Positions 1,665 through 37,073 are shown, counted from the stretch's first letter. The stretch is DNA of 64,000 bases from Chloroflexota bacterium (GCA_043812795.1 JBDRLU010000042.1:13903-77902); one strand, 5' to 3'. A program made the numbers and translations. Notes: generated by a model from the sequence alone, not told the origin.

Positions 1665-1752
1665 ACTGCGGGTAAGCAACCAGATGCCGGCTTGCAAGGC
1701 TGAGTGCTTTCCCAAGGAAGTCTCAGCCTTAATTTTGCCCACAAAGGGTTCC

Positions 1753-2544
1753 ATGAAGATTGCAATTAGCGGTAAAGGCGGAGTAGGTAAAACACTATTA
1801 GCGGCCCTTTTATCTAAAACATTTGCTGAGTCCGGCTATTCCGTAATCGCTATCGACGCCGACCCCGCCGCTAGTCTGGCGGCTACCCTCGGTTTTCCCC
1901 AGCCTGAAAAAATAACTCCCATATCAGAAATGAAAGAACTTATTGAGGAAAGGACCGGTGCCCGGCCCGGTCAATCGGGACCTTACTTCACGCTTAACCC
2001 CAAAGTGGATGACATCCCGGAAAAATATGCCCAGAAACAAGACGGCATCAGACTGATGCGGATGGGGGGCATCAAAGGTGGCGGCAGCGGCTGCTACTGT
2101 CCGGAGAATGCCCTGCTCAGAACACTGGTAGCTCACCTTCTGCTGGCACGGAATGAAGTGGTCATTCTCGATATGGAAGCCGGTATCGAGCATTTGAGCC
2201 GAGGAACGGCTAAGGCGGTGGATAAACTGATTATTGTCGTCGAGCCAGGACGGAGAAGTCTGGAGACCGCCGCCAACATCAGGAAACTGGCCGGGGACAT
2301 CGATTTAAAAACCATAGCTGTCGTCGGTAATAAAGTGAGAGACCAGGCAGACCAGGCATTTCTTAAAGCCAACTTACCTGACTTTGATTTTCTGGGTTTT
2401 ATACCCTATGACCCGGCGATTACCGAGGCCGACCAGGCCCGTCGTTCCGTCCTGGACGCTAGTCCTGCGGTCAAAGCAGCGGCGAAAGAAATATATCAGG
2501 CTTTGCGACAAAGTGCCGGAGAAGGCACTAAAAATAAGAAATAA
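1753..2544 (+). CDS. cooC: CooC/AcsF-type Ni-insertion ATPase (CODH/ACS maturation)
   Basis: MKIAISGKGGVGKT P-loop and a GSGCYCPEN CxC motif. Start moved to the internal ATG at 1753 of ORF 1684..2544. Confidence 0.85.
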   Translation: MKIAISGKGGVGKTLLAALLSKTFAESGYSVIAIDADPAASLAATLGFPQPEKITPISEMKELIEERTGARPGQSGPYFTLNPKVDDIPEKYAQKQDGIRLMRMGGIKGGGSGCYCPENALLRTLVAHLLLARNEVVILDMEAGIEHLSRGTAKAVDKLIIVVEPGRRSLETAANIRKLAGDIDLKTIAVVGNKVRDQADQAFLKANLPDFDFLGFIPYDPAITEADQARRSVLDASPAVKAAAKEIYQALRQSAGEGTKNKK

Positions 2545-2559
2545 GTAGAAGGAGGTTGT

Positions 2560-4332
2560 ATGCCCTACGACGTATCGAAGATGGCTGACTGGCAGATTGC
2601 CGAAGCCGCCGAAGAACACATGCCCACCCCTGACGAATGGCAAGCCAAACTGGGACTCCAGAAAGATGAAGTGCTCGCCTACGGGAAAGTTGCCAAGCTT
2701 GATTTTCTGAAAATAATGGAACGCCTCAAGAATAAACCGGACGGCAAATACATCGAGGTGACTGCGGTCACTCCCACGCCACTGGGCGAAGGGAAGACAA
2801 CCACCACCATGGGTCTGATGGAAGGATTGGGCAAACAGGGAGAGAACGTGGGCGGCTGTATCCGTCAGCCTTCGGGTGGCCCGACCATGAACGTCAAGGG
2901 GACCGCTGCCGGTGGCGGTAACGCCATCCTCATTCCCCATACCGAATTTTCCATGGGCCTTACCGGCGATATCAATGACATTATGAATGCTCACAACCTG
3001 GCGATGGTTGCCCTCACCGCCCGAATGCAGCACGAGCGCAATTATGACGATGCCGTACTGGCCAAACTGAGCCGTATGCGCCGCCTCGATATCGACCCGA
3101 CCCGCATCGAGATGGGCTGGATTCTGGACTTCTGCGCCCAGAGCCTGCGCAATATCATTATCGGCATCGGTGGACGTATGGAAGGCTTTTTAATGCAGTC
3201 CAAGTTTGGCATTGCTGTCAGCTCCGAGCTGATGGCCATGCTATCCATCGTCAGAGACCTGGCTGACCTGCGGGAAAGAATGAATAATATCACCGTAGCC
3301 TTCGATAAGAAAGGCAAGCCCATCACCACCAGTGACCTGGAAGTAGCCGGGGCGATGACGGCATGGATGCGTAATACCATCAATCCCACCCTGTGCTGCA
3401 CGGCCGAATACCAGCCTTGCATGGTCCATGCCGGACCTTTTGCCAATATTGCCGTCGGCCAGTCCTCGATTATTGCCGACCGGCTCGGGCTGAAGATGTT
3501 CGATTATCATGTTACTGAAAGCGGCTTCGCCTCTGATATCGGCTTCGAGAAATTCTGGAATGTGAAGTGTCGCTATAGCGGGCTCAAACCGAACGTATCC
3601 GTACTGGTCGCCACCGTCCGTTCGCTCAAGATGCATGGCGGTGGCCCCAGGGTAGTACCCGGTGTGGCACTACCTGACGCCTATAAGAAATCAGCCCCCG
3701 AACTGGTCGAGAAAGGTTGTGAAAACCTGGTCCATCACATCGGCATCATCCGGGCAGCCGGTATCAATCCGGTGGTCTGCGTCAATACCTTCCCAACCGA
3801 CACTAAAGAAGAGGTTGCCATCGTGCGTAAGGCCGCCGAAGCTGCCGGAGCTCGCTGTGCCCAATCCACTCATTTTTCGAATGGCGGTGCCGGTGCCGGA
3901 GAGCTGGCTGACGCCGTCAAGGAAGCCTGCAAGCAGGAGAACGAATTCAAGTTCCTCTATCCCAACGAAATGAAACTGAGAGATAGGGTGGACAAGGTAG
4001 CCAAGGTGGTCTACGGGGCCAGTGGTGTCTCCTGGAGTGCGGAAGCGGAAGCCAAGGCAAAAGCTTTCGAGGCGGATAAGAAATACGATGAGTACGCCAC
4101 CATGATGGTCAAGACCCATCTTTCGCTGACTCACGACCCGACCCTCAAGGGCGTACCCAAGGGATGGACATTGCCTATCCGCGATATCCTGATTTACTCC
4201 GGGGCTAAATTCCTTTGTCCGATGGCCGGAAGTATCAGCCTGATGCCTGGCACCGGGTCTGACCCGGCTTTCAGAAAGGTTGATGTCGATGTCAATACCG
4301 GCAAAGTCAAAGGATTGCACGAGGTAGATTAA
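2560..4332 (+). CDS. fhs: formate--tetrahydrofolate ligase
   Basis: 590 aa with [13 protein letters not shown] and typical FTHFS sequence throughout. RBS aggagg upstream. Confidence 0.95.
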
Positions 4333-4411
4333 AAAACTAAAATTCGATACCGAAAAAGTAAGCAGTCATCTTAACATAATGTCGTAATCATGGTATCATA
4401 TAGATAGGGTT

Positions 4412-6400
4412 ATGATGGCGAAGAACTCGGCAAACCAGAAAAGAAGAGTGCATTTCGAACCGGGAAATGTTGACATCGTTGTCGAACCGGGAGCTAACCT
4501 GCTGGAGACAGCAATTCAGGCCGGCGTACGGCTAATTGCTTCCTGCGGCGGGGAGGGCACCTGCGGCACCTGCAAGGTTGTCATCAAAGAAGGCGAGGTC
4601 GAAACCAAGCGCACCGCCAAGCTTTCCGACGAGGAATACCAGCGGGGAGTGAGACAGGCATGTCAAAGTAAAGTCATTACCGATTTGAAGGTTTACTTAC
4701 CCGTGGAATCAAGGCTGGAAACGGCCATCCTGGTCCGAGAGCAAAAGTCAACTGGTGCCCGGCAGCAGGAAGCTCTGGCCACCGGCTGGAGATTCAGTCC
4801 GCCGCTGAAGAAGTATTTTGTCGAGCTTCCGCCACCTACGCTTAACGACAATGTCAGCGACCTATCCCGATTATTGAGAGGTCTAAAACAGGACTACAAG
4901 CTGAGTAACATGACGGTAGATTTCGAAGTTGTGGCCAATCTTCCACGCGTACTGAGAGAACAAAATTGGCAAGCGACGGTAACCATCTTGGTAACGGCGG
5001 TGGAATCACAGACAGCTGCCCGCCGCCGGCCAAGGTTGGTTAACGTTGAACCGGGGGATACCCGGAAGCAATACTATTCCCTCGCCATTGACATCGGCAC
5101 AACTACCGTAAAGGCCCAGCTACTCGATTTAACCCGGGGACGGGTTATCGCGGAAGACGCCGACTATAACGGCCAGATTAGTTATGGCCGTGATGTCGTT
5201 ACCCGTATCACCTACTGCCAGCGTCCGGATGGGCTACCGACGCTACAAAAGGCCGTCGTCACTACCATCAACGAAATACTCGGTCGTTTGCTCGTCCAGA
5301 GTAAGGTTGACGTCGGGAATATCGGCCACGTAATCGTCGCCGGTAATACCACCATGCTCCAGATTCTGCTCGGTATCGACCCTAAATATATCAGGCTGGC
5401 GCCTTATACTCCCGCGGCTACTTACGTACCGCCGGTAAAGGCTAAATCGCTCGGCGTCAAGGTCGGGGGGCACGTATATCTTTTCACCTTCCCTCTCGTC
5501 GCCAGCTATGTCGGCGGTGACATCGTATCGGGAGTAGTTGCTGCTGGAGTACACCAGACCAAGAAACTGACTTTTTATATGGATATCGGCACCAACGGCG
5601 AAATTGTCATCGGGAAATCGGATTGGATGGTAACCGCCGCCTGTTCCGCCGGTCCCGCTTTTGAGGGTGGTGAGATAAAGCACGGCATGATCGCCACCAG
5701 CGGCGCTATCGAAGACTTTAGTATTGATGCTACAACTATCGAGCCGACCATCGGCACTATCGGTGACGAGAAACCCAAAGGCATCTGCGGCTCGGGGCTA
5801 ATCAACATCGTAGCCGGTCTGCTTGAAGCCAGGGCCATCAGTCCAAATGGGAAATTCAATACCGACTTGCCCGGCAAGAGAATCAGGGAGGGCAATGAAG
5901 GCTACGAATATGTTCTCGCCTGGGCGCCGGAGACACAGACAGATAAAGATATCGTCATCACCGAGACCGATATCGATAACCTCATGCGGGCTAAAGCGGC
6001 GATGTACGCCGGCTGCCAGACGCTGGTCAAAAGCGTCGGCCTTACCTGCAACGATATCGAGCAGGTAATTATTGCCGGGGCTTTCGGTAGCTATATTAAT
6101 ATTGAAAAGGCAATCACCATCGGTCTGCTGCCTGACCTGCCGCGGGAAAAATTTATCTTCATCGGGAACGGCTCCCTGATGGGAGCCAGACTGGGCTCGT
6201 TCTCCATCGATATCCTCGATGAAGTGAGAAGAGTCGCCAGGTTAATGACCAATTTTGAGCTGAGTGAAAACGTCGATTTTATGAATAATTATGTAGCCGC
6301 CCTTTTCTTCCCCCACACTAACGCCGACGACTTCCCCAATATTACCGAAAAACTTGGTGGGAAAAAGAAACGCACCTCGAAAAGGAGAGTCACGGTTTGA
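4412..6400 (+). CDS. acsV: reductive activator of corrinoid Fe-S protein (RACo/AcsV-like): 2Fe-2S ferredoxin domain plus ASKHA ATPase
   Basis: N-terminal CGGEGTCGTCKV plant-type ferredoxin motif, then an actin-like ATPase motif (AIDIGTTTVKAQL). 662 aa. Confidence 0.75.
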   Translation: MMAKNSANQKRRVHFEPGNVDIVVEPGANLLETAIQAGVRLIASCGGEGTCGTCKVVIKEGEVETKRTAKLSDEEYQRGVRQACQSKVITDLKVYLPVESRLETAILVREQKSTGARQQEALATGWRFSPPLKKYFVELPPPTLNDNVSDLSRLLRGLKQDYKLSNMTVDFEVVANLPRVLREQNWQATVTILVTAVESQTAARRRPRLVNVEPGDTRKQYYSLAIDIGTTTVKAQLLDLTRGRVIAEDADYNGQISYGRDVVTRITYCQRPDGLPTLQKAVVTTINEILGRLLVQSKVDVGNIGHVIVAGNTTMLQILLGIDPKYIRLAPYTPAATYVPPVKAKSLGVKVGGHVYLFTFPLVASYVGGDIVSGVVAAGVHQTKKLTFYMDIGTNGEIVIGKSDWMVTAACSAGPAFEGGEIKHGMIATSGAIEDFSIDATTIEPTIGTIGDEKPKGICGSGLINIVAGLLEARAISPNGKFNTDLPGKRIREGNEGYEYVLAWAPETQTDKDIVITETDIDNLMRAKAAMYAGCQTLVKSVGLTCNDIEQVIIAGAFGSYINIEKAITIGLLPDLPREKFIFIGNGSLMGARLGSFSIDILDEVRRVARLMTNFELSENVDFMNNYVAALFFPHTNADDFPNITEKLGGKKKRTSKRRVTV

Positions 6401-7173
6401 GTTTCTCCATCGCAGTTGCGGGCAAGGGTGGGAGCGGAAAGACTTCGATAACGAGCCTGATTATCCGTTATTTGAAGAATAACCACCTCGACCCGATTTT
6501 AGCAATTGACGCTGACGCCAATGCTAACCTGGGGGATAGTCTCGGACTCACTATCAAGAAAACAGTCGGCTCGATAATCGCCAGTTTCAATACTGAAAAA
6601 ATAAGTATTCCTCCTGGATTGACCAAGGAGGCCTATCTTGAGTATAAATTAAACGAAGCTATCGTGGAAGAAAAAGGGCTTGACCTGCTGACTATGGGGC
6701 GGGGTGAAGGCGCCGAATGCTACTGCTACCCCAACCTGTTGATGAGAAAGTTTATCGACAGTCTTTCCGGAAATTACGCCTATGTGGTCATGGATAACGA
6801 AGCCGGGATGGAGCACCTGAGCCGGAGGACAACGCAGAACGTCGATGCTTTGCTCCTCATCTCGGACCATTCCGTCAAAGGTATCCGTACTATCGCCCGG
6901 ATAAGGGAACTTGTCGCCGAACTCAAGCTGGTCGTGGCACGGCAACTACCGATAATTAATTTCGTGCCGTCTCAACTCGACCCGTTAATCAGCCAGGAAC
7001 TGGCCAGATTAAGCATCGAGCCGGCGGCACTAATTCCACAAGACAAACTGGTCTATGAATGTGACCTCGAGCAAAAACCGCTGCTCGACTTACCCGATTC
7101 ATCAATAGCGGTCAAAGCGGTCGATGACCTGATGGCTGAAGTCCTGCAAAAGGAACACAGCTACAAAGGGTGA
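6397..7173 (+). CDS. cooC: second CooC/AcsF-type Ni-insertion ATPase
   Basis: AVAGKGGSGKT P-loop and a GAECYCYPN CxC motif. The TTG start overlaps the acsV stop. Confidence 0.8.
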   Translation: MSFSIAVAGKGGSGKTSITSLIIRYLKNNHLDPILAIDADANANLGDSLGLTIKKTVGSIIASFNTEKISIPPGLTKEAYLEYKLNEAIVEEKGLDLLTMGRGEGAECYCYPNLLMRKFIDSLSGNYAYVVMDNEAGMEHLSRRTTQNVDALLLISDHSVKGIRTIARIRELVAELKLVVARQLPIINFVPSQLDPLISQELARLSIEPAALIPQDKLVYECDLEQKPLLDLPDSSIAVKAVDDLMAEVLQKEHSYKG

Positions 7174-7212
7174 CAGGATAATTGTATTATCAAATAAGAG
7201 GGAGGTTTAACC

Positions 7213-8091
7213 ATGCCGGCAGAAATAATAGATGGAAGAAAAATTGCTGCTGAAATCCAGGGAGAACTGAAGCAACGGATAAGCAACTTGCAGGCGAAGG
7301 GTGTAGCCCCGAAGCTGGTATCGATTCTGGTTGGCGAGGACCCTGCCTCTCAATCTTACCTCCGTGGCATTGCCCGCACCTGCGGGGAGGTCGGCGTACT
7401 GACCGATACTGCCAGACTCGCAGCGGATGTCACGCAGGCGGTACTTCTCCAGAAAATCAGTGAGCTTAACAACGACCCTCAAGTCCATGGTATCCTCCTC
7501 TTGCTGCCTTTACCCAAACACCTGAATAGCCTTGAGGCCGAGAGTGCCATTTCACCGGCCAAGGACGTGGATGGGACGAACCCCATCAGTGCCGGTAAAC
7601 TATTACTTGGCGAAGAAACTTTCTTTCCTTCGACTCCTTACGGAGTCCAGGAGCTGCTATACCGCAGCGGTCATGACCCGGACGGAAAGCACGTGGTCAT
7701 TGTCGGCCGCAGCAATATCGTAGGGAAACCCTTGATTGGCATACTGGTACAAAAACAAAAGGGGGCCAATGCCACCGTCACCGTATGCCATACCGGCACC
7801 AAGGACCTGCCGGCCATTACGAAACAGGCCGATATTCTGGTTGCCGCCATGGGGAGGGCGAAAGCCATTACCGCCGACATGGTATCGGAGGGAACGATAG
7901 TAATCGACGTCGGGGTGAACTTCATCCCGGACCCGGCCACCGGCAAGAATAAGCAGGTGGGTGATGTCGATTTCGAGGCGGTGAAAGAGAAGGCCGCCGC
8001 CATCACACCCGTACCGGGCGGGACGGGAGCGGTAACCTCGATTATGCTAATGGCAAATACGGTGAGAGCGGCTGAGTCGCTCACCAAATGA
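7213..8091 (+). CDS. folD: FolD-family methylene-THF dehydrogenase paralog 1, lacking cyclohydrolase Lys/Gln signatures
   Basis: 292 aa. GRSNIVGKP, CHTGT and IDVGVN are intact. YLRGI replaces YVxxK, and ILLLLPLP replaces LVQLPLP. Confidence 0.85.
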   Translation: MPAEIIDGRKIAAEIQGELKQRISNLQAKGVAPKLVSILVGEDPASQSYLRGIARTCGEVGVLTDTARLAADVTQAVLLQKISELNNDPQVHGILLLLPLPKHLNSLEAESAISPAKDVDGTNPISAGKLLLGEETFFPSTPYGVQELLYRSGHDPDGKHVVIVGRSNIVGKPLIGILVQKQKGANATVTVCHTGTKDLPAITKQADILVAAMGRAKAITADMVSEGTIVIDVGVNFIPDPATGKNKQVGDVDFEAVKEKAAAITPVPGGTGAVTSIMLMANTVRAAESLTK

Positions 8092-8125
8092 TAAAACGAA
8101 TTACCGGTCTTAGGAGGATAAGACG

Positions 8126-9016
8126 ATGCCAGCGATGATACTGGACGGGAGAAAGATTTCAGCCGAAATAAGAGAGGAACTTAAAGAACAGGCAAAGCTG
8201 CTCAAGGCACGGGGAATCGTGCCGGGTCTGGCTGGAATACTCGTCGGCGAAGACTCCGGCTCGGTTACCTACGTCGGACTGAAGAGCAAGGCCTGTGAAG
8301 AGATAGGTATCAAGGAAATGATGTGCCATCTGCCTGAGGCAGTAACGGAGCCAGAACTTTTCCAGAATATCGAAAAGCTGAATAAAGACCCGCAGGTCCA
8401 TGGCATCTTCATCCAGCTTCCTCTACCCAAACACCTGACGGCGTGTGAGGATAAAGCGCTGGCCGCCATCGTACCGGAAAAAGACGTTGACGGCTTCCAG
8501 GCTGTTAACGTGGGCAAGGCCTGGCTGGGACAGTCCGCCTTCGTACCGGCGGTAGCCATTGCCATGCATGAGATGCTCATCCGGGGCGGGTATGACCTCA
8601 AAGATAAAGAAGTAGTCATCGTAAATGTAGATAATATGGTAGGTAAACCGCTGGCCTCCATCCTGGTCCAGGACAAAGAAAAAGCGAGAGCTAACGTCAC
8701 CCTGTGCTATCCCACCACGCCAAATCTAGCGGCATATACCCGGCGGGCCGACGTAGTGGTAGTTTCGGTCAACAAACCGAAATTCATTACCGCCGATATG
8801 ATTAAGGAAGGGGCCGTGGTAATGGACTTCGGAGGAACATTTGTCGAAGACCCGGTGACCAAAAAGAGAAAGACAGTAGGTGATGTGGACTTCGAGGCAG
8901 TCAAAGAAAAAGCCGGGGCAATAACGCCGGTCCCCGGCGGAGTGGGACCGATGCTGGTCACCATGCTTATGCTGAGTACAGTTAACGCCGCCAAACTAGC
9001 GGCTGGATTAGCTTAG
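8126..9016 (+). CDS. folD: FolD-family paralog 2: cyclohydrolase signatures retained, nucleotide-binding motifs degenerate
   Basis: 296 aa. YVGLKSK, IFIQLPLP, KDVDGF and PVPGGVGPM are present. IVNVDNMVGKP, CYPTT and MDFGGT replace the canonical GRSxxVGxP, CHSxT and IDxGIN. Confidence 0.85.
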   Translation: MPAMILDGRKISAEIREELKEQAKLLKARGIVPGLAGILVGEDSGSVTYVGLKSKACEEIGIKEMMCHLPEAVTEPELFQNIEKLNKDPQVHGIFIQLPLPKHLTACEDKALAAIVPEKDVDGFQAVNVGKAWLGQSAFVPAVAIAMHEMLIRGGYDLKDKEVVIVNVDNMVGKPLASILVQDKEKARANVTLCYPTTPNLAAYTRRADVVVVSVNKPKFITADMIKEGAVVMDFGGTFVEDPVTKKRKTVGDVDFEAVKEKAGAITPVPGGVGPMLVTMLMLSTVNAAKLAAGLA

Positions 9017-9030
9017 AAAGGGAGGTAAAT

Positions 9031-9249
9031 ATGCCAGAGAAAATGGTGAAGAAAAAGGCTCCGGGACGGGGAGAGGTAGAGGTACTGGGCGAAACCTTCG
9101 AAGAAGGCAAACCCGAAGATAAGGACTTGGGCCGGTGGGAACAGAAGCTTGCTACCAGACAAGATAAACTGAAATACCTGGAAACGGCTGAAAGGTACTG
9201 GTACAGCAAGGAAGGGTTCGGCAGCGAAAAAAGAAAGAACCCGGCTTAA
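9031..9249 (+). CDS. small charged hypothetical protein (72 aa) inside the acs cluster
   Basis: It exactly fills the folD2-acsD gap and has a strong RBS (gggaggtaaatATG). Lys/Glu-rich. No family recognised. Confidence 0.5.
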   Translation: MPEKMVKKKAPGRGEVEVLGETFEEGKPEDKDLGRWEQKLATRQDKLKYLETAERYWYSKEGFGSEKRKNPA

Positions 9250-9257
9250 AGGAGGCG

Positions 9258-10208
9258 ATGATGGTATTTGAGATTCCGAAAACACTTTATAGCGGCAAAA
9301 TCAAAGAAATAGCTTTGGGCAAAGGCGATAAGTCAATCACGGTTGGCGGCGAGACAGCCTACCCGTTTTATCAGTTCGAAGGCAAAATGCCACACGCACC
9401 CAGAATCGCCATGGAAGTCTGGGACTCTTCGACTGAAGACTGGCCGGAAGCCGCCATCGAACCCTTTGCTGATGTCATCAACGACCCGGTTGCCTGGGCG
9501 AAGAAATGCGTCAGTAACTACGGGGCCGAGATGGTCTGCCTGCAATTAATCAGCACTGACCCCAATGGGATGAACCGTAGCCCTGAGGAAGCGGCGGCCG
9601 TAGCGAAGAAGGTAGCTGACGCTATCGACGTCCCTTTGATTGTCTGGGGCGTAGCTAACGTCGATAAAGATACCGAAGTGCTCAGAACGGTCGCTGAGGC
9701 CTGTCAGGGGAAAAACCTGATTCTAGGACCGGTTGAGGAAGCCGGCCACAAGAAGATAGGTGCTTCCGCCATTGCCTACCATCACACCATTGCAGCTTCG
9801 ACTCCCATTGACATTAACCTGGCCAAGCAACTGAATATCTTGCTCGGTAACCTGGGTGTGCCGGAAGGCCAGCTCATTATCGACCCGACCGTCAGCGGCA
9901 TCGGTTACGGCATCGAGTACGCTTTCTCGGTGATGGAAAGAGTTAGAATGGCCGCCCTGACCCAGCAGGACGATAAACTGCAGTTCCCGATAATTTGTAA
10001 CGTCTCGAAAGAGGTGTGGAAAACAAGAGAAGTAAAAATCCCCACCGCCGAAGACCCCAAGCTCGGCGATGTTAAGAAGAGGGGTATCTTAATGGAGGCC
10101 ATGTCGGCTACCGTGCTGCTTATCGCCGGCGCCGACGTTCTCATTATGAGACACCCCGAAGCAATAAAATTAGTGCGTGAAGTGATAGCCGATTTAACCG
10201 CTTCATAA
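9258..10208 (+). CDS. acsD: corrinoid/Fe-S protein small subunit (AcsD/CdhD-like)
   Basis: 316 aa TIM-barrel-like CFeSP delta subunit sequence. RBS aaaggagg. Sits beside acsA, acsB and acsC. Confidence 0.85.
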   Translation: MMVFEIPKTLYSGKIKEIALGKGDKSITVGGETAYPFYQFEGKMPHAPRIAMEVWDSSTEDWPEAAIEPFADVINDPVAWAKKCVSNYGAEMVCLQLISTDPNGMNRSPEEAAAVAKKVADAIDVPLIVWGVANVDKDTEVLRTVAEACQGKNLILGPVEEAGHKKIGASAIAYHHTIAASTPIDINLAKQLNILLGNLGVPEGQLIIDPTVSGIGYGIEYAFSVMERVRMAALTQQDDKLQFPIICNVSKEVWKTREVKIPTAEDPKLGDVKKRGILMEAMSATVLLIAGADVLIMRHPEAIKLVREVIADLTAS

Positions 10209-10231
10209 TAACGCAGAATCAGGAGGAAAAT

Positions 10232-12190
10232 ATGGCAGAGAAAGAGATTAAGAGTATTGACCAGGCTGCTCTTGAAATGATTGAAAAGGCGCAGAAGGAG
10301 AACGTACGAACGGTCTTTGACCGGGCTGAACAAATGAAGCCTTGCCCGATTGGTAGCGAGGGCAGTTGCTGTAGTAACTGCGCCATGGGCCCTTGCCGGG
10401 TGCCGCTGGCCAGGAATAAAGAAGAGACACCAGAAGAACACGCCAAGCGAACGGGCGTCTGTGGCGCTACCGCAGAGACAATCGCCGCCCGCAACTTCGT
10501 GAGGAAGATTGCCGCCGGAGCGGCAGCACACAGTGACCATGGCCGCAAAGTTGTCGAGGCTTTCAAATTAATGGCCGAAGGCAAGGCCAAAGACTTTGAG
10601 ATTAAAGACGAGCAGAAACTAATCAAACTGGCTCTTGACCTCGGCGTGGAGATTGGTGAACGCAGCAATCAGGAAATCGCCCTGGACATCGCCAAGATTT
10701 GCGAAGCTGAGTTTGGCAAGCAGGAAGGCGAACTTCTCTTTGGCCGACTGGCCCCTTTGAAGAGACAGGAAATCTGGCGGAAGCAGGGTGTGTACCCTCG
10801 TGGCATTGACCGCGAAGTCGTTGAACTGATGCATCGCACCCATATGGGTGTGGACCAGGACTACAAGAGCCTGCTGAAACAGGGTACACGCTGCGCGCTG
10901 GCAGACGGCTGGGGCGGCAGCATGATTGCCACTGAACTGCAGGATTGTATGTTCGGCACACCGTCTCCGGTTCTCAGCGAGATTAACCTGGGTGTGCTGA
11001 AAGAGGATATGGTCAACATCATTATCCACGGCCACGAACCGGCACTGGCTGAGATGCTGGCGGTGGTAAGCCAGGAGCCTGAACTTATCAAATATGCCGA
11101 ATCTAAGGGGGCTAAGGGTATCAACTTGGCCGGCATGTGCTGCACGGCGAATGAAATCTTGATGCGCCACGGCGTTCCCATTGCCGGTAATTTCCTGCAG
11201 CAGGAGTTAGCCATCGTCACCGGGGCTCTCGAAGCGATGGTAGTCGACGTGCAGTGCATCATGCAGGGACTGGCCGACGTTGCCAGGTGTTTTCACACCA
11301 AGCTTATCACGACTGATGAGCGTGCTCACATCACGGGGTCTACTTTCATGCGCTTCGACGAGCAAAATGCCAGAGAATCGGCTAAGGCCATTGTCAAAGC
11401 AGCTATTGACAACTTCCCTAAACGCGGTAAAAACGTCCGTATTCCCCAGGTGAAGACAACGCTGGTAGCCGGCTTCTCTCATGAGACTATTAACTACCTG
11501 CTAGGAGGACTTTTCCGTGCTTCATATCGGCCACTGAACGATAATATCATTAATGGCCGTATTCGTGGCCTCGCCGGGGTGGTCGGCTGCAACAACGCTC
11601 GTACCATACATGACGGAGACCATATCGCCATGATTAAAGAACTTTTAAAGAACGATGTGCTGGTGCTCACCACCGGCTGCGGCGCCATGGCGGCAGCCAA
11701 GGCGGGTCTCATGGTACCAGAAGCGGCGAAAGAGTACTGTGGTGCTGGGCTGGCTGAGGTTTGCGAAACGGTAGGTATTCCGCCAGTACTACACATGGGT
11801 TCCTGTGTCGACAATGCCCGTATCCTGATTGCGGCGACAGCCGTGGTTAAGGACGGCGGCCTGGGCGACGATATCAGCGACCTTCCCGCCGCTGGTGCTG
11901 CCCCCGAGTGGATGAGCGAGAAGGCCATCTCTATCGGCCAGTACTTCGTCGGCTCTGGTGTTTACACCGTATTTGGCACTACTTGGCCAACCGGCGGCAG
12001 CAAGGAACTCACCAAATACCTGTTTGAAGAATTCGAAGAACAGTATGGCGGCAAGTGGGACTTTGAGCCTGACCCCATCAAGGCGGCTCAAAAGATGATC
12101 GCCCACATAGACAAGAAGCGCAAGGCTCTGGGTATTGACAAAGCCAGAGAAAGAGTGCTTTACGATATGGCCATGCGTCGGGAGCTATAA
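10232..12190 (+). CDS. acsA: anaerobic carbon-monoxide dehydrogenase catalytic subunit
   Basis: 652 aa with an N-terminal CPIGSEGSCCSNCAMGPCR cluster motif and CooS-like sequence throughout. Confidence 0.9.
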   Translation: MAEKEIKSIDQAALEMIEKAQKENVRTVFDRAEQMKPCPIGSEGSCCSNCAMGPCRVPLARNKEETPEEHAKRTGVCGATAETIAARNFVRKIAAGAAAHSDHGRKVVEAFKLMAEGKAKDFEIKDEQKLIKLALDLGVEIGERSNQEIALDIAKICEAEFGKQEGELLFGRLAPLKRQEIWRKQGVYPRGIDREVVELMHRTHMGVDQDYKSLLKQGTRCALADGWGGSMIATELQDCMFGTPSPVLSEINLGVLKEDMVNIIIHGHEPALAEMLAVVSQEPELIKYAESKGAKGINLAGMCCTANEILMRHGVPIAGNFLQQELAIVTGALEAMVVDVQCIMQGLADVARCFHTKLITTDERAHITGSTFMRFDEQNARESAKAIVKAAIDNFPKRGKNVRIPQVKTTLVAGFSHETINYLLGGLFRASYRPLNDNIINGRIRGLAGVVGCNNARTIHDGDHIAMIKELLKNDVLVLTTGCGAMAAAKAGLMVPEAAKEYCGAGLAEVCETVGIPPVLHMGSCVDNARILIAATAVVKDGGLGDDISDLPAAGAAPEWMSEKAISIGQYFVGSGVYTVFGTTWPTGGSKELTKYLFEEFEEQYGGKWDFEPDPIKAAQKMIAHIDKKRKALGIDKARERVLYDMAMRREL

Positions 12191-12228
12191 CGCCATGATA
12201 AGAATACAAAGGGAGGGCTCAACGAGAG

Positions 12229-14436
12229 ATGTCTAAAATCATAGCTTCAGCCGTAATCAGAGGAGCTCACAAGATTGTTGACCGGGCTGAAAAAACATGG
12301 CAGCAGGCCATGGAAAAGCACGGGGCCAACGAAGCCGTCGGTTTTCCGAACACAGCTTATTACCTGCCTATCATCTACGGCATCCTGGGCGCCAAAGTCG
12401 AAAAACTGGGTGATATGGAACCGGTCCTGAAGAAATGCCGGTCGCTGTTGCCACCGCCGGTGAAGGAGTTACACCCGCTACCCTATCTGGCCCCCGCCCT
12501 CGATGCCGGCATGGCCACGCTGTGGGCCGAGGAAATAATCGAGGCTATCCGGTACCTGGAACAGCCGGACTTCTACGTCAGAGGTGAAGACGTCACCGAA
12601 GACAATATCTGGCTCGGGGCTGCCGATGATATCATCCTCCGTAAGAGGGGCATCGAATTCGTCGATGGCACCGCTCCGGGCTTTGCCGCTGTCCTCGGCG
12701 CCGCTCCGACCAAAGAGATTGCCGCCCAAATCGCTCAGGAACTTCAGCAGAAAAACCTGTATGTTTTTATGGGTGCCGAATATAACGGCAAGAGGTTCGC
12801 CGAACAACTGGTGGAGGCCGGCGTGCAAATTGGCTGGCCGACTCGCCTCGTTTCCTTTGGCCCCGATGTCAGCGCTGTGGTTTTCGCCATGGGTTTCGCC
12901 ACGCGGGCAGCTATGTCCTTCGGCGGTATCGAACCCGGCGATTTCCGTAAAATCCTGATCTATAATAAAGACCGCGTTTTTGCTTTCGCTTTACCACTCG
13001 GCTTTGTCAGCGATGAATGGTACGCTAATGCCGCCGGGGCTATCAACTGGGGCTTCCCGGTTATTGCCGATACTCCGATTCCCGAGGTCTTACCCAGCGG
13101 CATCTGCACCTACGAACATGTTGTCTCCAATATCCCGCACGACAGCATTGTCGCCAAGGCCGTTGAGGTACGCGGTCTGAAAGTCTCTGTATCCGAGATA
13201 CCCATTCCTGTCGCTTATGGTGCCGCTTTCGAAGGTGAAAGAGTCAGAGGTGAAGATATTTTCCTCGAGTGCGGCGGTGGCCGGACTGCCATGGTGGAAT
13301 GGGTCACCAGCAAGCGGATGGATGAAGTTGAAGACGGTAAAGTGGAAGTCATCGGGCCGGAGGTAACTGACGTTAAAGCCGGCTCCAGACTACCGTTCGC
13401 TATCACGGTGGAAGTGGCCGGGCGCCAGATGCAGGAAGACTACGAGCCTATTCTGGAACGGCAGATTCACCACCTCATCAACTACGCCCAGGGCGTCATG
13501 CACATCGGCCAGAGAGATATCGCCTGGATACGTGTCGGCAAGCAGGCCGTCGAAAAAGGCTTCAAACTGGAGCACATCGGTGTCATCCTGCATGCCAAGC
13601 TGCACCAGGACTTCGGCCGAATCTTCGATAAAATGCAGGTCAAACTTTATACCAAAGAAGAAGACGTCGCCAAGATTGTCGAACAAGCGAGACAAGTTTA
13701 CCAGACGAGGGACGCCCGTATCGAAGGGATGACCGACGAGAGCGTCGAGACCTATTACTCCTGCACGTTGTGCCAGTCTTTCGCTCCAACCCACGTTTGC
13801 AGCATCAGTCCGGAGCGGACGGGGCTTTGCGGTTCCTACAACTGGATGGACTGCAAAGCTTCCTACGAGATTAACCCCACCGGGCCCAACCAACCGATAG
13901 AAAAAGGCGAGGTCCTCGACCCCAAACTCGGACGGTGGAAGGGAACCGACGAATTTGTCTTCAAGGCCTCGCGCGGCAAAATCGACCATTACTACTTCTA
14001 CAGCATTGTTAATGACCCGATGACCACCTGCGGCTGCTGCGAGTGTATTGCCGCCGTCCTGCCGACGTGCAACGGCGTCATGACGGTCAACCGGGAATAC
14101 ACCGGTGAGACCCCCTGCGGCATGAAATTCACCACTCTCGCCGGGACTATCGGCGGTGGTCTGAGCACCCCCGGTTTTGTCGGTCACGGCAAATACAATC
14201 TCACCCAGAGGAAGTGGATTCTGGGTGATGGCGGTCTGTTACGGCTGGTCTGGATGCCCAAGATGCTCAAGGAAGAACTCCGTGAGCGACTTCTGGCCAG
14301 GGGTAAAGAACTGGGCGTGCCTGACCTTATCGATAAAATCGCCGATGAAACCGTCGGTACTACCGAGGAAGCGATTCTCCCCTTCCTGACCGAAAAAGGA
14401 CATCCCGCCCTCGGTATGGACCCAATTCTAGGCTAA
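12229..14436 (+). CDS. acsB: acetyl-CoA synthase (CODH/ACS alpha subunit, AcsB)
   Basis: 735 aa. Cys-Gly-Cys A-cluster motif (TTCGCCECI) and a typical AcsB N-terminus. Confidence 0.9.
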   Translation: MSKIIASAVIRGAHKIVDRAEKTWQQAMEKHGANEAVGFPNTAYYLPIIYGILGAKVEKLGDMEPVLKKCRSLLPPPVKELHPLPYLAPALDAGMATLWAEEIIEAIRYLEQPDFYVRGEDVTEDNIWLGAADDIILRKRGIEFVDGTAPGFAAVLGAAPTKEIAAQIAQELQQKNLYVFMGAEYNGKRFAEQLVEAGVQIGWPTRLVSFGPDVSAVVFAMGFATRAAMSFGGIEPGDFRKILIYNKDRVFAFALPLGFVSDEWYANAAGAINWGFPVIADTPIPEVLPSGICTYEHVVSNIPHDSIVAKAVEVRGLKVSVSEIPIPVAYGAAFEGERVRGEDIFLECGGGRTAMVEWVTSKRMDEVEDGKVEVIGPEVTDVKAGSRLPFAITVEVAGRQMQEDYEPILERQIHHLINYAQGVMHIGQRDIAWIRVGKQAVEKGFKLEHIGVILHAKLHQDFGRIFDKMQVKLYTKEEDVAKIVEQARQVYQTRDARIEGMTDESVETYYSCTLCQSFAPTHVCSISPERTGLCGSYNWMDCKASYEINPTGPNQPIEKGEVLDPKLGRWKGTDEFVFKASRGKIDHYYFYSIVNDPMTTCGCCECIAAVLPTCNGVMTVNREYTGETPCGMKFTTLAGTIGGGLSTPGFVGHGKYNLTQRKWILGDGGLLRLVWMPKMLKEELRERLLARGKELGVPDLIDKIADETVGTTEEAILPFLTEKGHPALGMDPILG

Positions 14437-14451
14437 AGAAGGAGTAACGAA

Positions 14452-15798
14452 ATGCCACTTACGGGAATACAGATTTTTAAGTTACTACCCAAGACCAACT
14501 GCGGTCAGTGCGGCGTACCGACCTGCCTCGCTTTCGCCATGAACCTGGCCGCAGGGAAAGCGGAACTGACCGCCTGCCCCCATGTCTCCGAGGAAGCCAA
14601 AGCCCAGTTACAGGAAGCTTCCGCCCCACCCATCCGGCCGATAACCATCGGCGCCAATGGCCGGACAGCAAAAGTAGGCGGCGAGACCGTCATGTTCCGT
14701 CACGAAAAAAGGTTCGAGAACCCGACCGGGATTGCCATGCTGATTAAGGACACGATGGATGCCGCTGAAGTGGACGCCCGCCTGGAAAAGTGTAAAACGC
14801 TCCAGTACGAACGGGTAGGCCTCACCCTGCGTCCGGAATTGGTAGCTGTCAAAGACGAAGCGGGGGATGCCAGCAAATTTGCCGCTTTGGTCGATAAGGT
14901 CAAACAAAATAGTGACTGCGGCATCATTCTGATGAGTAGTAATCCCGATATCCTGGCAGCAGGCGTGAAAGCCTGCGCCGACCGCAAACCACTGATATAT
15001 GCCGCAACCAAGGATAATCTGGACAAAGTGGCGGCGCTGGGCAAAGAGAGCAACTGTCCGGTAGCGGTCAAAGCCGCCAGCGTGGCCGAAGCCGCCGAGC
15101 TAACCGGCAAATTGGAGCAGGCCGGGGTCAAAGATATTGTCATTGATTCCGGGGCCAGAACGCTCCGCCAGGCTTTCGAAGACCAGGTTGTTATCCGGTC
15201 CTCGGCTTTAAACAAGAAGTTCCGCCCGCTCGGCTTTCCTACCATCGTTCTCCCCTGTGAGATGACCGATAACCCGTTGAAAGAAGCGGTAATGGCGGCG
15301 GCATTCGTAGCTAAATATGCCGGCATCCTCGTGCTCTCTGATTTTCAGGGCGAGAGTCTGTTCCCGCTGCTGGTGGAAAGGCTGAATATCTTCACTGACC
15401 CGCAGCGGCCGCTGGCTACCACCGCCGGGGTCTATCCCATCGGTACTCCCAACGAGAACTCACCGGTACTCCTGACCAGCAACTTCTCGCTGACCTACTT
15501 CCTGGTTTCAGGCTATATCGAGACCAGTAAAGTCTCTACCTACCTTCTCGTTATGGACACCGAGGGGCTTTCCGTCATGACCGCCTGGGCGGCGGGAAAG
15601 TTTGTTGCTGACGCTATCGCCCCCTTTGTTAAAAAATCTGAGGTTTGGGAAAAGGTCAAGCACAAGAAACTGGTCATTCCGGGATACGCCGCGGCCGAAA
15701 GCGGTGGCCTGGAAGAAGAGCTTGCCGGCTGGGAGATTTTGATTGGTCCCCGGGACGGCGCTCATATTCCGGCTTATCTCAAAACATGGAAAGCATAG
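14452..15798 (+). CDS. acsC: corrinoid/Fe-S protein large subunit (AcsC)
   Basis: 448 aa with the N-terminal 4Fe-4S motif KTNCGQCGVPTCLAFAM. Confidence 0.9.
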   Translation: MPLTGIQIFKLLPKTNCGQCGVPTCLAFAMNLAAGKAELTACPHVSEEAKAQLQEASAPPIRPITIGANGRTAKVGGETVMFRHEKRFENPTGIAMLIKDTMDAAEVDARLEKCKTLQYERVGLTLRPELVAVKDEAGDASKFAALVDKVKQNSDCGIILMSSNPDILAAGVKACADRKPLIYAATKDNLDKVAALGKESNCPVAVKAASVAEAAELTGKLEQAGVKDIVIDSGARTLRQAFEDQVVIRSSALNKKFRPLGFPTIVLPCEMTDNPLKEAVMAAAFVAKYAGILVLSDFQGESLFPLLVERLNIFTDPQRPLATTAGVYPIGTPNENSPVLLTSNFSLTYFLVSGYIETSKVSTYLLVMDTEGLSVMTAWAAGKFVADAIAPFVKKSEVWEKVKHKKLVIPGYAAAESGGLEEELAGWEILIGPRDGAHIPAYLKTWKA

Positions 15799-15808
15799 GG
15801 AGGAAAAG

Positions 15809-16687
15809 ATGATCCTTATCGGAGAAAGCATCAACATAATGTCCAAGACCATCGGCCCGGCAATGCGCGAGAGAAACGCCCAGCCGATTCAGGATATGGC
15901 TAAAGCCGAGACTGATGCCGGGATGGACTACCTCGATATCAATATCGGCCCGGCCCGGAAGGCCGGTGATGAATTGATGAAATGGATGGTCGAGACCGTG
16001 CAGCAGGTGACCAACTTGCCTTTGTCCCTCGATACCACCAATCCGGTCGCTATGGAAGCTGGTCTGCAGGTTCATAAGGGCAAAGCCCTCATGAACTCGA
16101 TTTCTTTACAGCCGGCCCGGATTGAAGCAGAATTGCCCATGGCCAAGAAATACAACGCCAACATGATTGGTCTGCTATGGGGCGTCGAAGGAATGCCGCG
16201 TGATGCCAACGAGCGGGCGGCCCTAGCCGTTGACCTCATTTACAAAGCGTCTGAAACAACTATCCCTAATGAAGATATCTGGATTGACCCCATCGCCAGC
16301 CCGATATCGGTCGAAATCAACCAGGTGAAATCATGCGTCGAGTTTATGAGTATGCTGGGTGAAATTGCTCCCGGCTGCAAATCGACCGTCGGTCTGTCCA
16401 ATATCTCCAACGGCACACCCGCTGAACTACGGCCCATCCTTAATCGGACTTACCTGATAATGCTGATGAAGTACGGCCTTTATTCCGCCATTGTTGACCC
16501 GCTGGACACCGAACTGGCGAAAATAGCCAAAGGGCAAATGCCCGAAATCGTTGACCTGGTATACCGCATGATGGATGGCGACAAACCCAACATTGCTACG
16601 CTCAGCAAAAAGGAAGCGGAATATGCGAAAACAGTCCGTGTCCTTACCGGAGAGACGCTCTATTCCCATTCCTGGCTTGAGATATAG
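15809..16687 (+). CDS. acsE: methyl-THF:corrinoid/Fe-S protein methyltransferase (AcsE)
   Basis: Pterin-binding domain sequence (MILIGESINIMSK..., LDINIGPA). Start moved to ATG 15809, which follows gggaggaaaag. Confidence 0.85.
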   Translation: MILIGESINIMSKTIGPAMRERNAQPIQDMAKAETDAGMDYLDINIGPARKAGDELMKWMVETVQQVTNLPLSLDTTNPVAMEAGLQVHKGKALMNSISLQPARIEAELPMAKKYNANMIGLLWGVEGMPRDANERAALAVDLIYKASETTIPNEDIWIDPIASPISVEINQVKSCVEFMSMLGEIAPGCKSTVGLSNISNGTPAELRPILNRTYLIMLMKYGLYSAIVDPLDTELAKIAKGQMPEIVDLVYRMMDGDKPNIATLSKKEAEYAKTVRVLTGETLYSHSWLEI

Positions 16688-16712
16688 AAGTTTTTGATAA
16701 AGGAGAGATGAG

Positions 16713-19123: not shown

Positions 19124-19151
19124 TTTCCGGGATAAGAGTTAAGGAGGGAAA

Positions 19152-19817
19152 ATGATACTTTCAAGACAGAAACCCTGGGAGGAAATTCTGGGCTATTTAG
19201 ACGGTCAGAATAACATCTTCATCGTCGGCTGCAATGGCTGTGCTCAGGCTTCGGGCACGGGCGGACCGGTACAGGTCGCCGAAATGAAAACCAAACTGGA
19301 AGAAGCTGGCAAAAAAGTCACCGGCAGTACGGTAGTCGATTTCCTCTGCCAGAAAGCACTGGTAGCGTCAAAATTAAGCCCCAGAAGCGAACAAATCGGG
19401 GCCGCCGATTCGCTACTGGTAATGACCTGCGGTATTGGCGTGCAGGCTACCGCAGCTGTTGTCACTAAAGTCTGCCATCCCGCTTGCGATACATTAAGCC
19501 TGGGCGGCAGCCGGGGCGAATGGCAGGGCAGCGAAAGATGCTTGGAATGCGGCGAATGCTTGCTGGAATATACCGGAGGAATATGCCCGCTGACCGCCTG
19601 CACCAAAAGCCTGATTAACGGCCAGTGCGGCGGGGCCAAGGACGGGAAATGTGAACTTGACCCCGGTAAAGATTGCGGCTGGGAACTGATTTATAACCGG
19701 CTCAAAAGATTAAACCAGCTCGACAAGCTAAGCCAACTGGTCACACCCAAGAACTACGCCAAGATGATGCCCGAGGTCAAGACGATGGCTACCTCGATGT
19801 GGGCACTGGAAAGATAA
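19152..19817 (+). CDS. metV: MetV (methylene-THF reductase accessory Cys-rich subunit)
   Basis: 221 aa and Cys-rich (CLECGECLL, CPLTACTKSLINGQCGG). Immediately upstream of metF. Confidence 0.8.
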   Translation: MILSRQKPWEEILGYLDGQNNIFIVGCNGCAQASGTGGPVQVAEMKTKLEEAGKKVTGSTVVDFLCQKALVASKLSPRSEQIGAADSLLVMTCGIGVQATAAVVTKVCHPACDTLSLGGSRGEWQGSERCLECGECLLEYTGGICPLTACTKSLINGQCGGAKDGKCELDPGKDCGWELIYNRLKRLNQLDKLSQLVTPKNYAKMMPEVKTMATSMWALER

Positions 19818-19832
19818 AAGGAGATAGTGCAA

Positions 19833-20708: not shown

Positions 20709-20713
20709 CGGAC

Positions 20714-28606: not shown

Positions 28607-28607
28607 T

Positions 28608-37032: not shown

Positions 37033-37073
37033 AAGGGCATCTATTAGCGATTGTGAGAGTGAGGGGGTCAGTG

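Follow-up and report, generated by a model that had tools for sequence, protein, structure and literature searches.

Adjacent FolD paralogs with complementary loss of cyclohydrolase and NADP-site residues in a Dehalococcoidia Wood-Ljungdahl gene cluster

Results and Discussion

A tandem folD pair within a Wood-Ljungdahl gene cluster

The stretch of DNA analyzed here (hereafter the window) spans 64,000 nucleotides (nt) of a 90,109-bp contig in a metagenome-assembled genome (MAG) from a member of the Dehalococcoidia (Chloroflexota; GCA_043812795.1, JBDRLU010000042.1:13903-77902). It contains two adjacent, co-oriented and full-length genes of the FolD family, whose bifunctional members carry out the dehydrogenase and cyclohydrolase reactions of tetrahydrofolate (THF) metabolism in one cleft. 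The upstream gene, FolD1 (7213..8091, plus strand), is an open reading frame (ORF) of 292 amino acids (aa), and the downstream gene, FolD2 (8126..9016, plus strand), is an ORF of 296 aa; the two proteins are 51% identical in a pairwise alignment. Based on their PF00763 and PF02882 domains, a residue map, AlphaFold2 folds and conserved orthologs, FolD1 is predicted to be a methylene-THF dehydrogenase that depends on nicotinamide adenine dinucleotide phosphate (NADP) and lacks cyclohydrolase activity, and FolD2 is predicted to be a methenyl-THF cyclohydrolase in which binding of NAD(P) has been lost.

A Shine-Dalgarno sequence, GGGAGG, lies upstream of the FolD1 start, and the 34-nt spacer between the genes (8092..8125, plus strand) contains another, AGGAGG at 8112-8117, located 8 nt before the FolD2 ATG. 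Because there is no terminator-sized gap between them, the two genes are probably co-transcribed. An earlier note on this DNA, made from the sequence alone, had placed the pair in the middle of a Wood-Ljungdahl operon, and Pfam assignment of the neighboring genes bears this out. The neighbors form a complete cluster (1684..21373, plus strand), in the order cooC, fhs, RACo, cooC/acsF, FolD1, FolD2, a 72-aa ORF, acsD, acsA (carbon monoxide dehydrogenase), acsB, acsC and acsE, followed by the small and large subunits of a NiFe-hydrogenase, metV, metF and DUF3786, and this gene order is common to related loci.

Both copies are complete members of the FolD family

Each copy contains both FolD Pfam domains end to end, with E values of 1e-38 to 1e-60. 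Scores for PF00763 and PF02882 are 129.6 and 202.8 bits for FolD1, and 131.5 and 162.7 bits for FolD2, against gathering cut-offs of 32.8 and 27. These two domains are the only matches to FolD2 at E≤0.01, and no FchA domain (PF04961) was found in it. Neither copy reaches the cut-off of an NCBIfam FolD equivalog among the best 25 of 30 matched models, FolD1 scoring at best 326 bits where 530 are required, and FolD2 at best 300 where 421 are required. Since no listed equivalog model reaches its cut-off, both copies carry the generic NCBI product name [quoted passage not shown].

AlphaFold2 models of FolD1 and FolD2 have predicted local distance difference test scores of 88.7 and 91.0, respectively. 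The top Foldseek matches of the models in the PDB are all FolD/MTHFD structures, with template modeling scores of 0.84-0.96 and root mean square deviations of 1.2-3.2 Å, at 38-46% identity; over approximately 290 columns the models superpose on solved FolDs with template modeling scores of approximately 0.9 and deviations of 1.2-2.0 Å. Conceivably, motifs that appear to be missing from one copy could lie at shifted positions. This was ruled out by HMMER alignments of both copies to PDB FolDs, which are gap-free around every motif, together with superposition of the AlphaFold2 models; neither the Lys and Gln of FolD1 nor the dinucleotide site of FolD2 has been displaced, which settles the profile and structural check that the earlier note had called for.

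Each copy lacks residues that the other retains

Residues of the two copies were placed in human numbering by alignment with human DC301, orthologs and canonical relatives. The DC301 sequence was verified against PDB entries 1A4I, 1DIA and 6ECQ, to which it is identical apart from the known K134R variant. In human DHCH, seven substrate-binding or catalytic residues (Y52, K56, Q100, L101, D125, G273 and G276) and 13 NADP contacts (T148, R173, S174, I176, H196, S197, A215, T216, Q218, M221, C236, G237 and I238) have been described (PMC3368264). Y52 and D125 bind and orient the folate (PMC3368264, PMC3338484), and K56, positioned by Q100, has been assigned as the general acid/base of the cyclohydrolase reaction (PMC3338484). 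In the dehydrogenase step, K56 contributes to binding and has no noticeable catalytic role (PMC9173628). The NADP 2'-phosphate has R173, H196 and S197 as its ligands, and GRSxxVG is the dinucleotide-binding loop (PMC3368264, PMC9173628).

In FolD1, the catalytic lysine of the YxxxK motif (codons Y49-L-R-G-I53, 7357..7371, plus strand) is replaced by isoleucine (K56 to I53), and Q100 is replaced by leucine (L97 of LLLLPLP, codons L95-P101, 7495..7515, plus strand), a secondary loss. S49, Y52, L101, D125, G273 and G276 are kept. R51 and R55 lie two residues either side of I53, and helix geometry suggests that neither arginine points into the active site in the way that position 53 would. Twelve of the 13 NADP contacts are in the state seen in canonical Dehalococcoidia relatives, the exception being position 216 (A to M). 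The dinucleotide loop GRSNIVG (codons G165-G171, 7705..7725, plus strand) is intact, with R166 and S167 at human R173 and S174, and is invariant in the FolD1 clade; the 2'-phosphate-binding positions are retained as R166 and T194. With Y49, D120, GRSNIVG and CHTGT alongside the K56 to Ile change, FolD1 has an intact dinucleotide site and the folate Tyr and Asp, without the cyclohydrolase Lys.

FolD2 shows the complementary pattern. All eight folate or catalytic residues are kept: S49, Y52, K56 (K53), Q100 (Q97), L101, D125, G273 and G276. The intact YxxxK motif (Y52 and K56 in human numbering) occupies codons Y49-V-G-L-K53 (8270..8284, plus strand), and Q97 lies within FIQLPLP (codons F95-P101, 8408..8428, plus strand). 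At the dinucleotide site, 12 of the 13 NADP contacts known from human DC301 are changed in FolD2, as are the first loop Gly, G217 and N239. PAVAIA (codons P141-A146, 8546..8563, plus strand) replaces PCTPxG and places Val at the NADP contact T148 (T148V), a secondary loss. NVDNMVG (codons N167-G173, 8624..8644, plus strand) replaces GRSxxVG, giving G172N, R173V, S174D and I176M, with N167-V168-D169 aligned to G172-R173-S174. CYPTT (codons C194-T198, 8705..8719, plus strand) replaces CH[ST]xT and removes the 2'-phosphate ligands, Y195-P196 standing at H196-S197 (H196Y, S197P). VSVNKP (codons V213-P218, 8762..8779, plus strand) replaces AAxGxP (A215S, T216V, G217N, the last being N216), and DFGGT (codons D234-T238, 8825..8839, plus strand) replaces DVG[IV]N (C236F at F235, I238G, N239T). 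M221F completes the changes.

These maps agree with the earlier note, which had described a FolD1 that lacks the cyclohydrolase Lys and Gln and keeps its NADP motifs, and a FolD2 that has lost the nucleotide-binding motifs and keeps those of the cyclohydrolase. The strings on which it relied are all present in the translations (SYLRGIARTC, ILLLLPLP, VIVGRSNIVGKP, CHTGT, AAMGRA and VIDVGVN in FolD1; YVGLKSKAC, IFIQLPLP, KDVDGF, PAVAIA, VIVNVDNMVGKP, CYPTT, VSVNKP, VMDFGGT and PVPGGVGPM in FolD2). Neither copy alone has both the YxxxK lysine with Q100 and the NADP site. At the level of whole domains, a partition of the changes into the N-terminal domain for FolD1 and the C-terminal domain for FolD2 is not significant (Fisher p = 0.34), because FolD1 also alters the C-terminal GGVGPM folate loop; mapping the contacts one residue at a time is the more telling test.

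The derived states are conserved and under purifying selection

We examined close homologs of each copy (n=120 per copy, identity of at least 79%) and more distant orthologs. Position 53 of FolD1 is Ile in all 120 close homologs, in 19 intact genes from genome loci and in 44 FolD1-type genes from metagenomes, and position 97 is L or F in 120/120 close homologs. In FolD2, K53 is present in 120/120 close homologs and in all orthologs. Among the replacement residues of FolD2, D169 and N216 are each found in 120/120 close homologs, P196 in 117/120 and F235 in 118/120, and position 167 is N or P. Across the FolD2 clade D169 occurs in 21/21 members, V168 in 95% and N167 in 90%; P196 and V215 are invariant, and N216 and F235 are conserved at 90-95%. 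The derived states of both copies are nearly invariant in orthologs to approximately 60% identity, and over the same range S49, Y52, K56, Q100, L101, D125, G273 and G276 are invariant in the FolD2 clade.

In 60 canonical FolDs, 146 columns show conservation of 90% or more; the FolD1 clade has lost the canonical residue at 20 of them and the FolD2 clade at 24. Among the losses specific to FolD1 are K56, two positions of the GGVGPM folate loop and the Phe of DVDGF, and those specific to FolD2 include the entire GRS loop, the Ser/Thr that binds the 2'-phosphate, the glycine of A-x-G and the valine of D-V-G. Many of the FolD2 replacement residues are 90-100% conserved, which indicates a new constraint on the pocket and not drift. 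Pairwise ratios of nonsynonymous to synonymous substitution (dN/dS) are approximately 0.03-0.09 for both genes where dS is unsaturated. These ratios, together with the invariant derived residues, rule out pseudogenes or relaxed selection.

The two types are obligately linked and sometimes fused

Two scans were made, one of genomes (one genome per GTDB species, FolD2 as query) and one of metagenome contigs (FolD1 as query); loci and proteins are labeled L### and P####, respectively. FolD2-type genes were found in 20 genome loci at 60-88% identity, all of them in Dehalococcoidia or Dehalococcoidales MAGs, below which identity falls sharply to 54% or less and the matches are canonical FolDs of other phyla. 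A FolD1-type gene lies directly upstream on the same strand in 20/20 of these loci, and in 18 of the 20 the spacer is 0-37 nt, with a Shine-Dalgarno site before FolD2. Genes with the K56 to Ile change were found at 44 metagenome loci, of which 36 have a FolD2-type gene next, two are fused to one and six are ended by the contig edge; no locus among the 44 has downstream room and lacks a FolD2-type partner. The two types therefore co-occur in 58/58 testable loci (20 genome and 38 metagenome), so that the survey of tandem folD pairs near similar operons proposed in the earlier note found the pair linked wherever linkage could be scored. The remaining 36 metagenome loci, none of which exceeds 63% identity, each have a single FolD of canonical type, and a canonical FolD is present in all 96 other loci sampled (60 genome and 36 metagenome). 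A representative library of 1.84 billion proteins contains one FolD2-type representative of a 50%-identity cluster (P0241, 459 bits), and the next match scores 268 bits. An assembly artefact or chimeric duplication was ruled out by the presence of the pair in 20 species-level genomes and on 38 metagenome contigs from many studies.

At two genome loci, L005 (9045-9972) and L006 (8193-9067), one frameshift in each divides the FolD1-type gene into halves that are otherwise intact and conserved. The frameshift is probably an assembly indel, the alternative being recent pseudogenisation.

An in-frame fusion of FolD1 and FolD2 is found in two metagenomes, at L124 (1172-2938) and L125 (3001-4767), which are 99.9% identical. 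Each is a single ORF of 601 codons in which the FolD1 stop is gone, and the fusion protein is approximately 589 aa long with a linker of 3-4 residues. The junction reads ...AAELATGG-LTK-MSAKILDG, at a point where the close relatives L122 and L123 have a TAA stop. A protein from a third source, P0391 (588 aa), is the same fusion and is 85% identical over its full length; its junction (...AAELAE-GISK-VSAKILDG) has diverged, and the internal Met is now Val. In the fusions, FolD1-type motifs are intact in the N-terminal half, and so are the NADP-degenerate FolD2-type motifs in the C-terminal half. The occurrence of the fusion in diverged sources indicates that a sub-lineage has inherited it and that it does not stem from misassembly. 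The fusion is Rosetta-stone evidence that FolD1 and FolD2 act as a unit.

Obligate adjacency and occasional fusion, along with the destroyed NADP site, would also suit a FolD2 that is a catalytically silent pseudoenzyme, serving as a structural or regulatory partner of FolD1 with the cyclohydrolase step occurring spontaneously or by another protein. Methenyl-THF does hydrolyze spontaneously at neutral pH. MTHFD1L provides a precedent for an inactive FolD-like domain (PMC11064299). We nevertheless regard a silent FolD2 as very unlikely. A scaffold would not need the 8/8 folate and catalytic residues that are invariant in the FolD2 clade, the specific loss of the cyclohydrolase Lys from FolD1 makes sense only with another supplier, and no FchA gene is present in the operon.

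NADP-degenerate FolDs have arisen elsewhere

In a set of 150 diverse representatives of the family, 116 have the canonical residues at K56, at Q100 and at the Gly and Ser of the loop; in a minority, K56 is missing or the NADP-loop motif differs. Three proteins, P0347, P0249 and P0296, keep S49, Y52, K56, Q100, D125, G273 and G276 (L101 is Val in P0296) and lose R173, S174, H196 and S197, the last always by change to Pro as in FolD2. They differ from FolD2 in origin, replacement residues, genomic context and partners.

P0347 is the downstream copy of a tandem pair in a nusB-folD-folD'-xseA-xseB operon of a spore-forming Firmicute MAG, GCA_023249405.1 (L084, 7020-7889 and 8001-8855; also L085). 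It keeps K56, Q100 and D125 and carries R173F, S174G, H196N, S197P, A215E and G217A, and its upstream partner carries K56Q, L101T, D125E, R173H and S197I. Judged by these residues, the Firmicute pair is a second, independent complementary pair.

P0249 (L081, 3053-3904; L082, 861-1712) lies directly after fhs and is convergent with a gene of PF01993, the F420-dependent methylene-tetrahydromethanopterin dehydrogenase (Mtd) family. Its NADP-site changes are R173M, S174G, G178V, H196D and S197P, and it could serve as a cyclohydrolase of FolD descent whose dehydrogenase partner is not a FolD. P0296 (L083, 4885-5736) is located inside a purine cluster, in the order purH, purD, purT, the P0296 gene, purB and purA, and has R173C, S174G, H196Y, S197P and G217D with K56, Q100 and D125 intact. 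A further recurring subtype (P0345, P0353, P0357, P0376 and P0387) has YxxxQ for YxxxK, DVEG for DVDG, a G/S-H/R-S-E-I-V-G loop and CHIxT (CHSGT in P0357). The upstream Firmicute partner in L084 is of this type, which may represent a widespread group of cyclohydrolase-less, NAD-type dehydrogenases.

The recurrence supports the view that an NADP-less FolD is a viable and selected form, most simply a cyclohydrolase if its residues are a guide. These lineages also bear on whether FolD2 has instead gained a new function, its remodelled pocket housing another ligand or cofactor in a new methylene-THF dehydrogenase or an enzyme acting on some other pterin substrate. Such a gain would account for the new constraint on the invariant D169, P196 and V215 and on N167, N216 and F235 (90-95%), and the Mtd homolog adjoining P0249 shows that non-pyridine cofactors occur in such neighborhoods. 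However, the pair has no specific linkage to genes for cofactor biosynthesis or electron carriers, FolD1 is already a canonical NADP-dependent dehydrogenase by its residues, and filling or rigidifying an empty pocket explains the conserved residues equally well. Moreover, the three other lineages degraded the pocket with different residues except for S197P, which favors loss over a common new ligand. We consider a new function of this kind highly improbable. The narrower proposal that N167, D169, P196, N216 and F235 of the former NADP pocket bind a different ligand, be it a non-pyridine redox cofactor or, in an asymmetric heterodimer, part of FolD1 itself, is only slightly less doubtful. If it were true, FolD2 would belong to a new type of enzyme converting methylene- or methenyl-THF, with its own cofactor logic or substrate channelling, and FolD-derived NADP-less proteins, with at least four independent origins, would constitute an unrecognised enzyme class in one-carbon (C1) metabolism.

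Origin of the pair

Six loci of related Dehalococcoidia (L028, L041, L046, L054, L055 and L058), and partly L030, carry the same operon with a single canonical FolD in the slot of the pair. Their gene order is cooC-fhs-(RACo)-cooC-FolD-72aa-acsD-acsA-acsB-acsC-acsE, with some lacking the RACo gene. In a tree of the locus proteins (all trees are neighbor-joining), each of the two clades has 100% bootstrap support, and FolD1 and FolD2 are sisters at 94%.

The sister relationship is vulnerable to sampling, and this tells against duplication in place: when P0249, P0296 and P0347 are added it collapses, FolD2 grouping with them in 85/100 bootstraps with all columns included and FolD1 clustering with canonical Chloroflexi FolDs. 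That arrangement, and the S197P change common to all four lineages, would fit a different origin for the pair, one that is compatible with the same functions. FolD2 would have come from an older, horizontally spreading NADP-degenerate family and been inserted beside folD, after which the resident gene lost K56. The grouping of FolD2 with the other degenerate proteins stems from the C-terminal domain, though, and when the NADP-site columns are removed it falls to 31%, against 46% for FolD1 with FolD2, itself a low recovery that weakens the case for sisters. In addition, FolD1, FolD2 and neighboring canonical FolDs have two lineage-specific insertions in common, both missing in P0249, P0296 and P0347, and at eight positions conserved in canonical FolDs both FolD1 and FolD2 have derived states in common, one of them the same V to A change. 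Given the C-terminal origin of the signal, its weakening without the NADP columns, the shared insertions and the shared derived changes, we attribute the attraction of FolD2 to the other degenerates to convergence and long branches, and judge a horizontal origin to be unlikely. In-place tandem duplication is the best-supported origin, as read from the shared indels and derived sites. Complementary loss, purifying selection and co-occurrence, the hallmarks of duplication-degeneration-complementation, are all found here; the common ancestry of the copies is not robust to taxon sampling.

A predicted division of labor between FolD1 and FolD2

Every comparative test that was run, namely complementary loss, conservation, slot replacement, co-occurrence in 58/58 loci and fusion, agrees with the division into a dehydrogenase-type and a cyclohydrolase-type copy suggested in the earlier note. 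On these comparisons we consider it likely that the pair represents complementary monofunctionalisation, into an NADP-dependent methylene-THF dehydrogenase and a FolD-derived methenyl-THF cyclohydrolase. Under this scheme the single bifunctional folD of the Dehalococcoidia Wood-Ljungdahl operon would have duplicated in place, and the two copies would have lost complementary functions by duplication-degeneration-complementation. FolD1, with canonical NADP(H) and folate sites, would have lost K56 and later, in a sub-clade, Q100; it would interconvert 5,10-methenyl-THF and 5,10-methylene-THF with NADP(H) and would not hydrolyze methenyl-THF. FolD2 would retain a complete folate/cyclohydrolase site next to a dinucleotide pocket apparently rebuilt with residues incompatible with NAD(P). 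Several changes predict that FolD2 cannot bind NAD(P): an Asp stands in the phosphate loop, Arg, Ser and His have been lost (the Ser that binds the 2'-phosphate having become Pro), and Asn and Phe would fill the nicotinamide side. FolD2 would therefore interconvert only 10-formyl-THF and 5,10-methenyl-THF. Together the two would replace the bifunctional FolD between Fhs and MetVF, most likely as a heterodimer of one FolD1 and one FolD2 that uses the usual FolD dimer interface. Provided that the functional split is real, we lean toward such a heterodimer, which the earlier note had offered as an alternative, an estimate that was raised because of the natural fusion.

Several observations weigh against this reading. 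For all members of both clades we infer the two enzyme activities and the loss of NADP binding from sequence. The conserved pocket residues of FolD2 fit a new structural role, but they could mean a new ligand. The heterodimer is deduced solely from gene linkage and the fusion, and each FolD monomer has a complete active-site cleft, so that complementation does not strictly need a dimer. No third FolD or FchA was detected with Pfam in the 64-kb window, the stretch to which that search was confined. Furthermore, the deep FolD1 orthologs (L007 and L011-L020) keep Q100, and the Q100 to Leu change is limited to the sub-clade of the window. Common to the whole clade are the K56 to Ile change in FolD1 and, in FolD2, Asp at S174, Pro at S197 and the loss of R173 and G217. 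Position G172 of FolD2 is Asn in most members, with Gly or Ser in two of the deepest. PATPxG and CHPST persist in the majority of deep FolD2 orthologs, T148 and H196 having been lost only in shallower branches. The losses were thus progressive, and this counts in favor of the split, being the order expected if the primary function went first and secondary residues were then freed from constraint.

The consequence of losing K56 is itself a matter of conflicting reports. Human DC301 mutants at K56 and Q100, described by Schmidt et al. in 2000 and by Sundararajan and MacKenzie in 2002, reportedly lose cyclohydrolase and keep dehydrogenase activity. In silkworm MTHFD, Ala mutants at the equivalents of K56 and Q100 have dehydrogenase kcat/Km values within approximately twofold of wild type, and near-wild-type cyclohydrolase kinetics were reported for K53A, the K56 equivalent (PMC6443876), a result that also counts against a dehydrogenase-only FolD1. 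The silkworm K53A kinetics clash with the human data, and the K56 to Ile change may not abolish the activity; a background of non-enzymatic methenyl-THF hydrolysis may confound the silkworm assay. Taken at face value, the silkworm result, in which K53A reportedly retains both activities, together with the full fold kept in both copies, would allow both FolD1 and FolD2 to be bifunctional still and merely diverged (into isoenzymes suited to different conditions or reaction directions, for instance), with the motif changes tolerated. This is the least probable of the alternatives that we weighed, given that in FolD2 12/13 NADP contacts have changed, the phosphate-binding Arg and Ser are lost and an Asp has been gained in the phosphate loop. 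The complementary pattern, obligate pairing and fusion are likewise unexpected for redundant isoenzymes, and all listed NCBIfam FolD equivalog models are below cut-off for both copies.

Comparison with known systems

FolD1 and FolD2 share with bifunctional FolD/MTHFD enzymes such as E. coli FolD and human DC301 the two-domain architecture, the fold and the pathway position between Fhs and MetF, and differ from them in that each lacks residues for one of the two reactions. The acetogen cyclohydrolase FchA belongs to an unrelated family, PF04961; in contrast, the cyclohydrolase candidate described here is a FolD paralog with a gutted Rossmann site. Acetobacterium woodii divides the same two steps between FchA and FolD, each a separate protein (PMC3315566), and the acetogen fhs-fchA-folD cluster is the closest functional analogue of the pair, with two proteins encoded by adjacent genes beside fhs (PMC3315566, PMC6925170).

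Yeast MTD1 (PDB 1EDZ/1EE9), a monofunctional dehydrogenase with the FolD fold and no cyclohydrolase activity, is a functional analogue of FolD1. The two are distant (E 2.5e-8, partial alignment) and not orthologs: MTD1 is NAD-specific and has no FolD-derived cyclohydrolase partner, whereas FolD1 appears to be a recent derivative of canonical bacterial FolD that keeps the NADP-type Arg and Thr. The N-terminal domain of vertebrate mitochondrial MTHFD1L is a FolD homolog that has lost its function by substitutions and kept its fold (PMC11064299). In MTHFD1L neither activity remains and an active synthetase is fused to the domain, whereas FolD1 and FolD2 would each have lost one, in complementary fashion.

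In targeted searches of the literature, neither a complementary split of FolD nor a cyclohydrolase derived from FolD was found to have been described before. A family-wide survey from 2024, which excluded metagenomes, found one FolD in most prokaryotes and reported no ancient prokaryotic duplications (PMC11064299). The novelty lies in the architecture, a pair of FolD-derived, complementary half-enzymes that are sometimes re-fused; the family, the chemistry and the pathway are already known, and no principle is overturned. FolD is a classic enzyme with two reactions in one site, and the pair appears to be a natural experiment separating them by a few diagnostic substitutions. The separation has apparently occurred repeatedly, with the Dehalococcoidia, a Firmicute and at least two further contexts as examples. 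As such it offers a clean, testable case of subfunctionalisation, and variants with which to explore how the two chemistries depend on K56, Q100 and bound NADP.

There are also practical implications. Hundreds of Dehalococcoidia sequences are labeled "bifunctional FolD" twice over. Models of Wood-Ljungdahl cofactor use and energetics in subsurface Chloroflexi assume a bifunctional NADP enzyme, as in a single-cell study of deep-sea Chloroflexi that treated folD as an ordinary enzyme of this kind (PMC5736913). If the split allows the two steps to be tuned independently, it would bear on reductive or oxidative use of the pathway near thermodynamic limits by abundant bacteria of sediments and aquifers. 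In bifunctional enzymes the cyclohydrolase step was reportedly found to be rate-limiting in the reductive direction, a result attributed to Pawelek and MacKenzie in 1998. A small, NADP-independent cyclohydrolase with the FolD fold would also be a new part for synthetic C1 pathways.

Other features of the window

The 72-aa ORF between FolD2 and acsD (9031-9249, plus strand) is rich in Lys and Glu and has no Pfam match. In Dehalococcoidia, homologs occupy the same Wood-Ljungdahl operon position beside either the pair or a single FolD (L001-L005, L008-L010, L028, L030, L041, L046, L054, L055 and L058). The NiFe-hydrogenase small and large subunit genes (16713-19123, plus strand) are inserted between acsE and metV-metF. 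Adjacency of hydrogenase and metVF genes is also seen in many Planctomycetota loci (for example L029, L031, L032, L050, L056, L071 and L073), which suggests a hydrogenase-linked methylene-THF reductase module.

Further downstream, the window encodes three molybdopterin-oxidoreductase catalytic subunits of 729, 705 and 735 aa (28034-33114, minus strand, and 37053-39842, plus strand), two of which adjoin ferredoxin-type subunits with four clusters. These are possibly formate dehydrogenase-like or other enzymes of the dimethyl sulfoxide reductase family. Finally, GC content dips to 0.43 at 46001-48000, compared with approximately 0.53 elsewhere, around a 300-aa ORF (46048-46950) that has no Pfam match, and this low-GC stretch may be foreign DNA.

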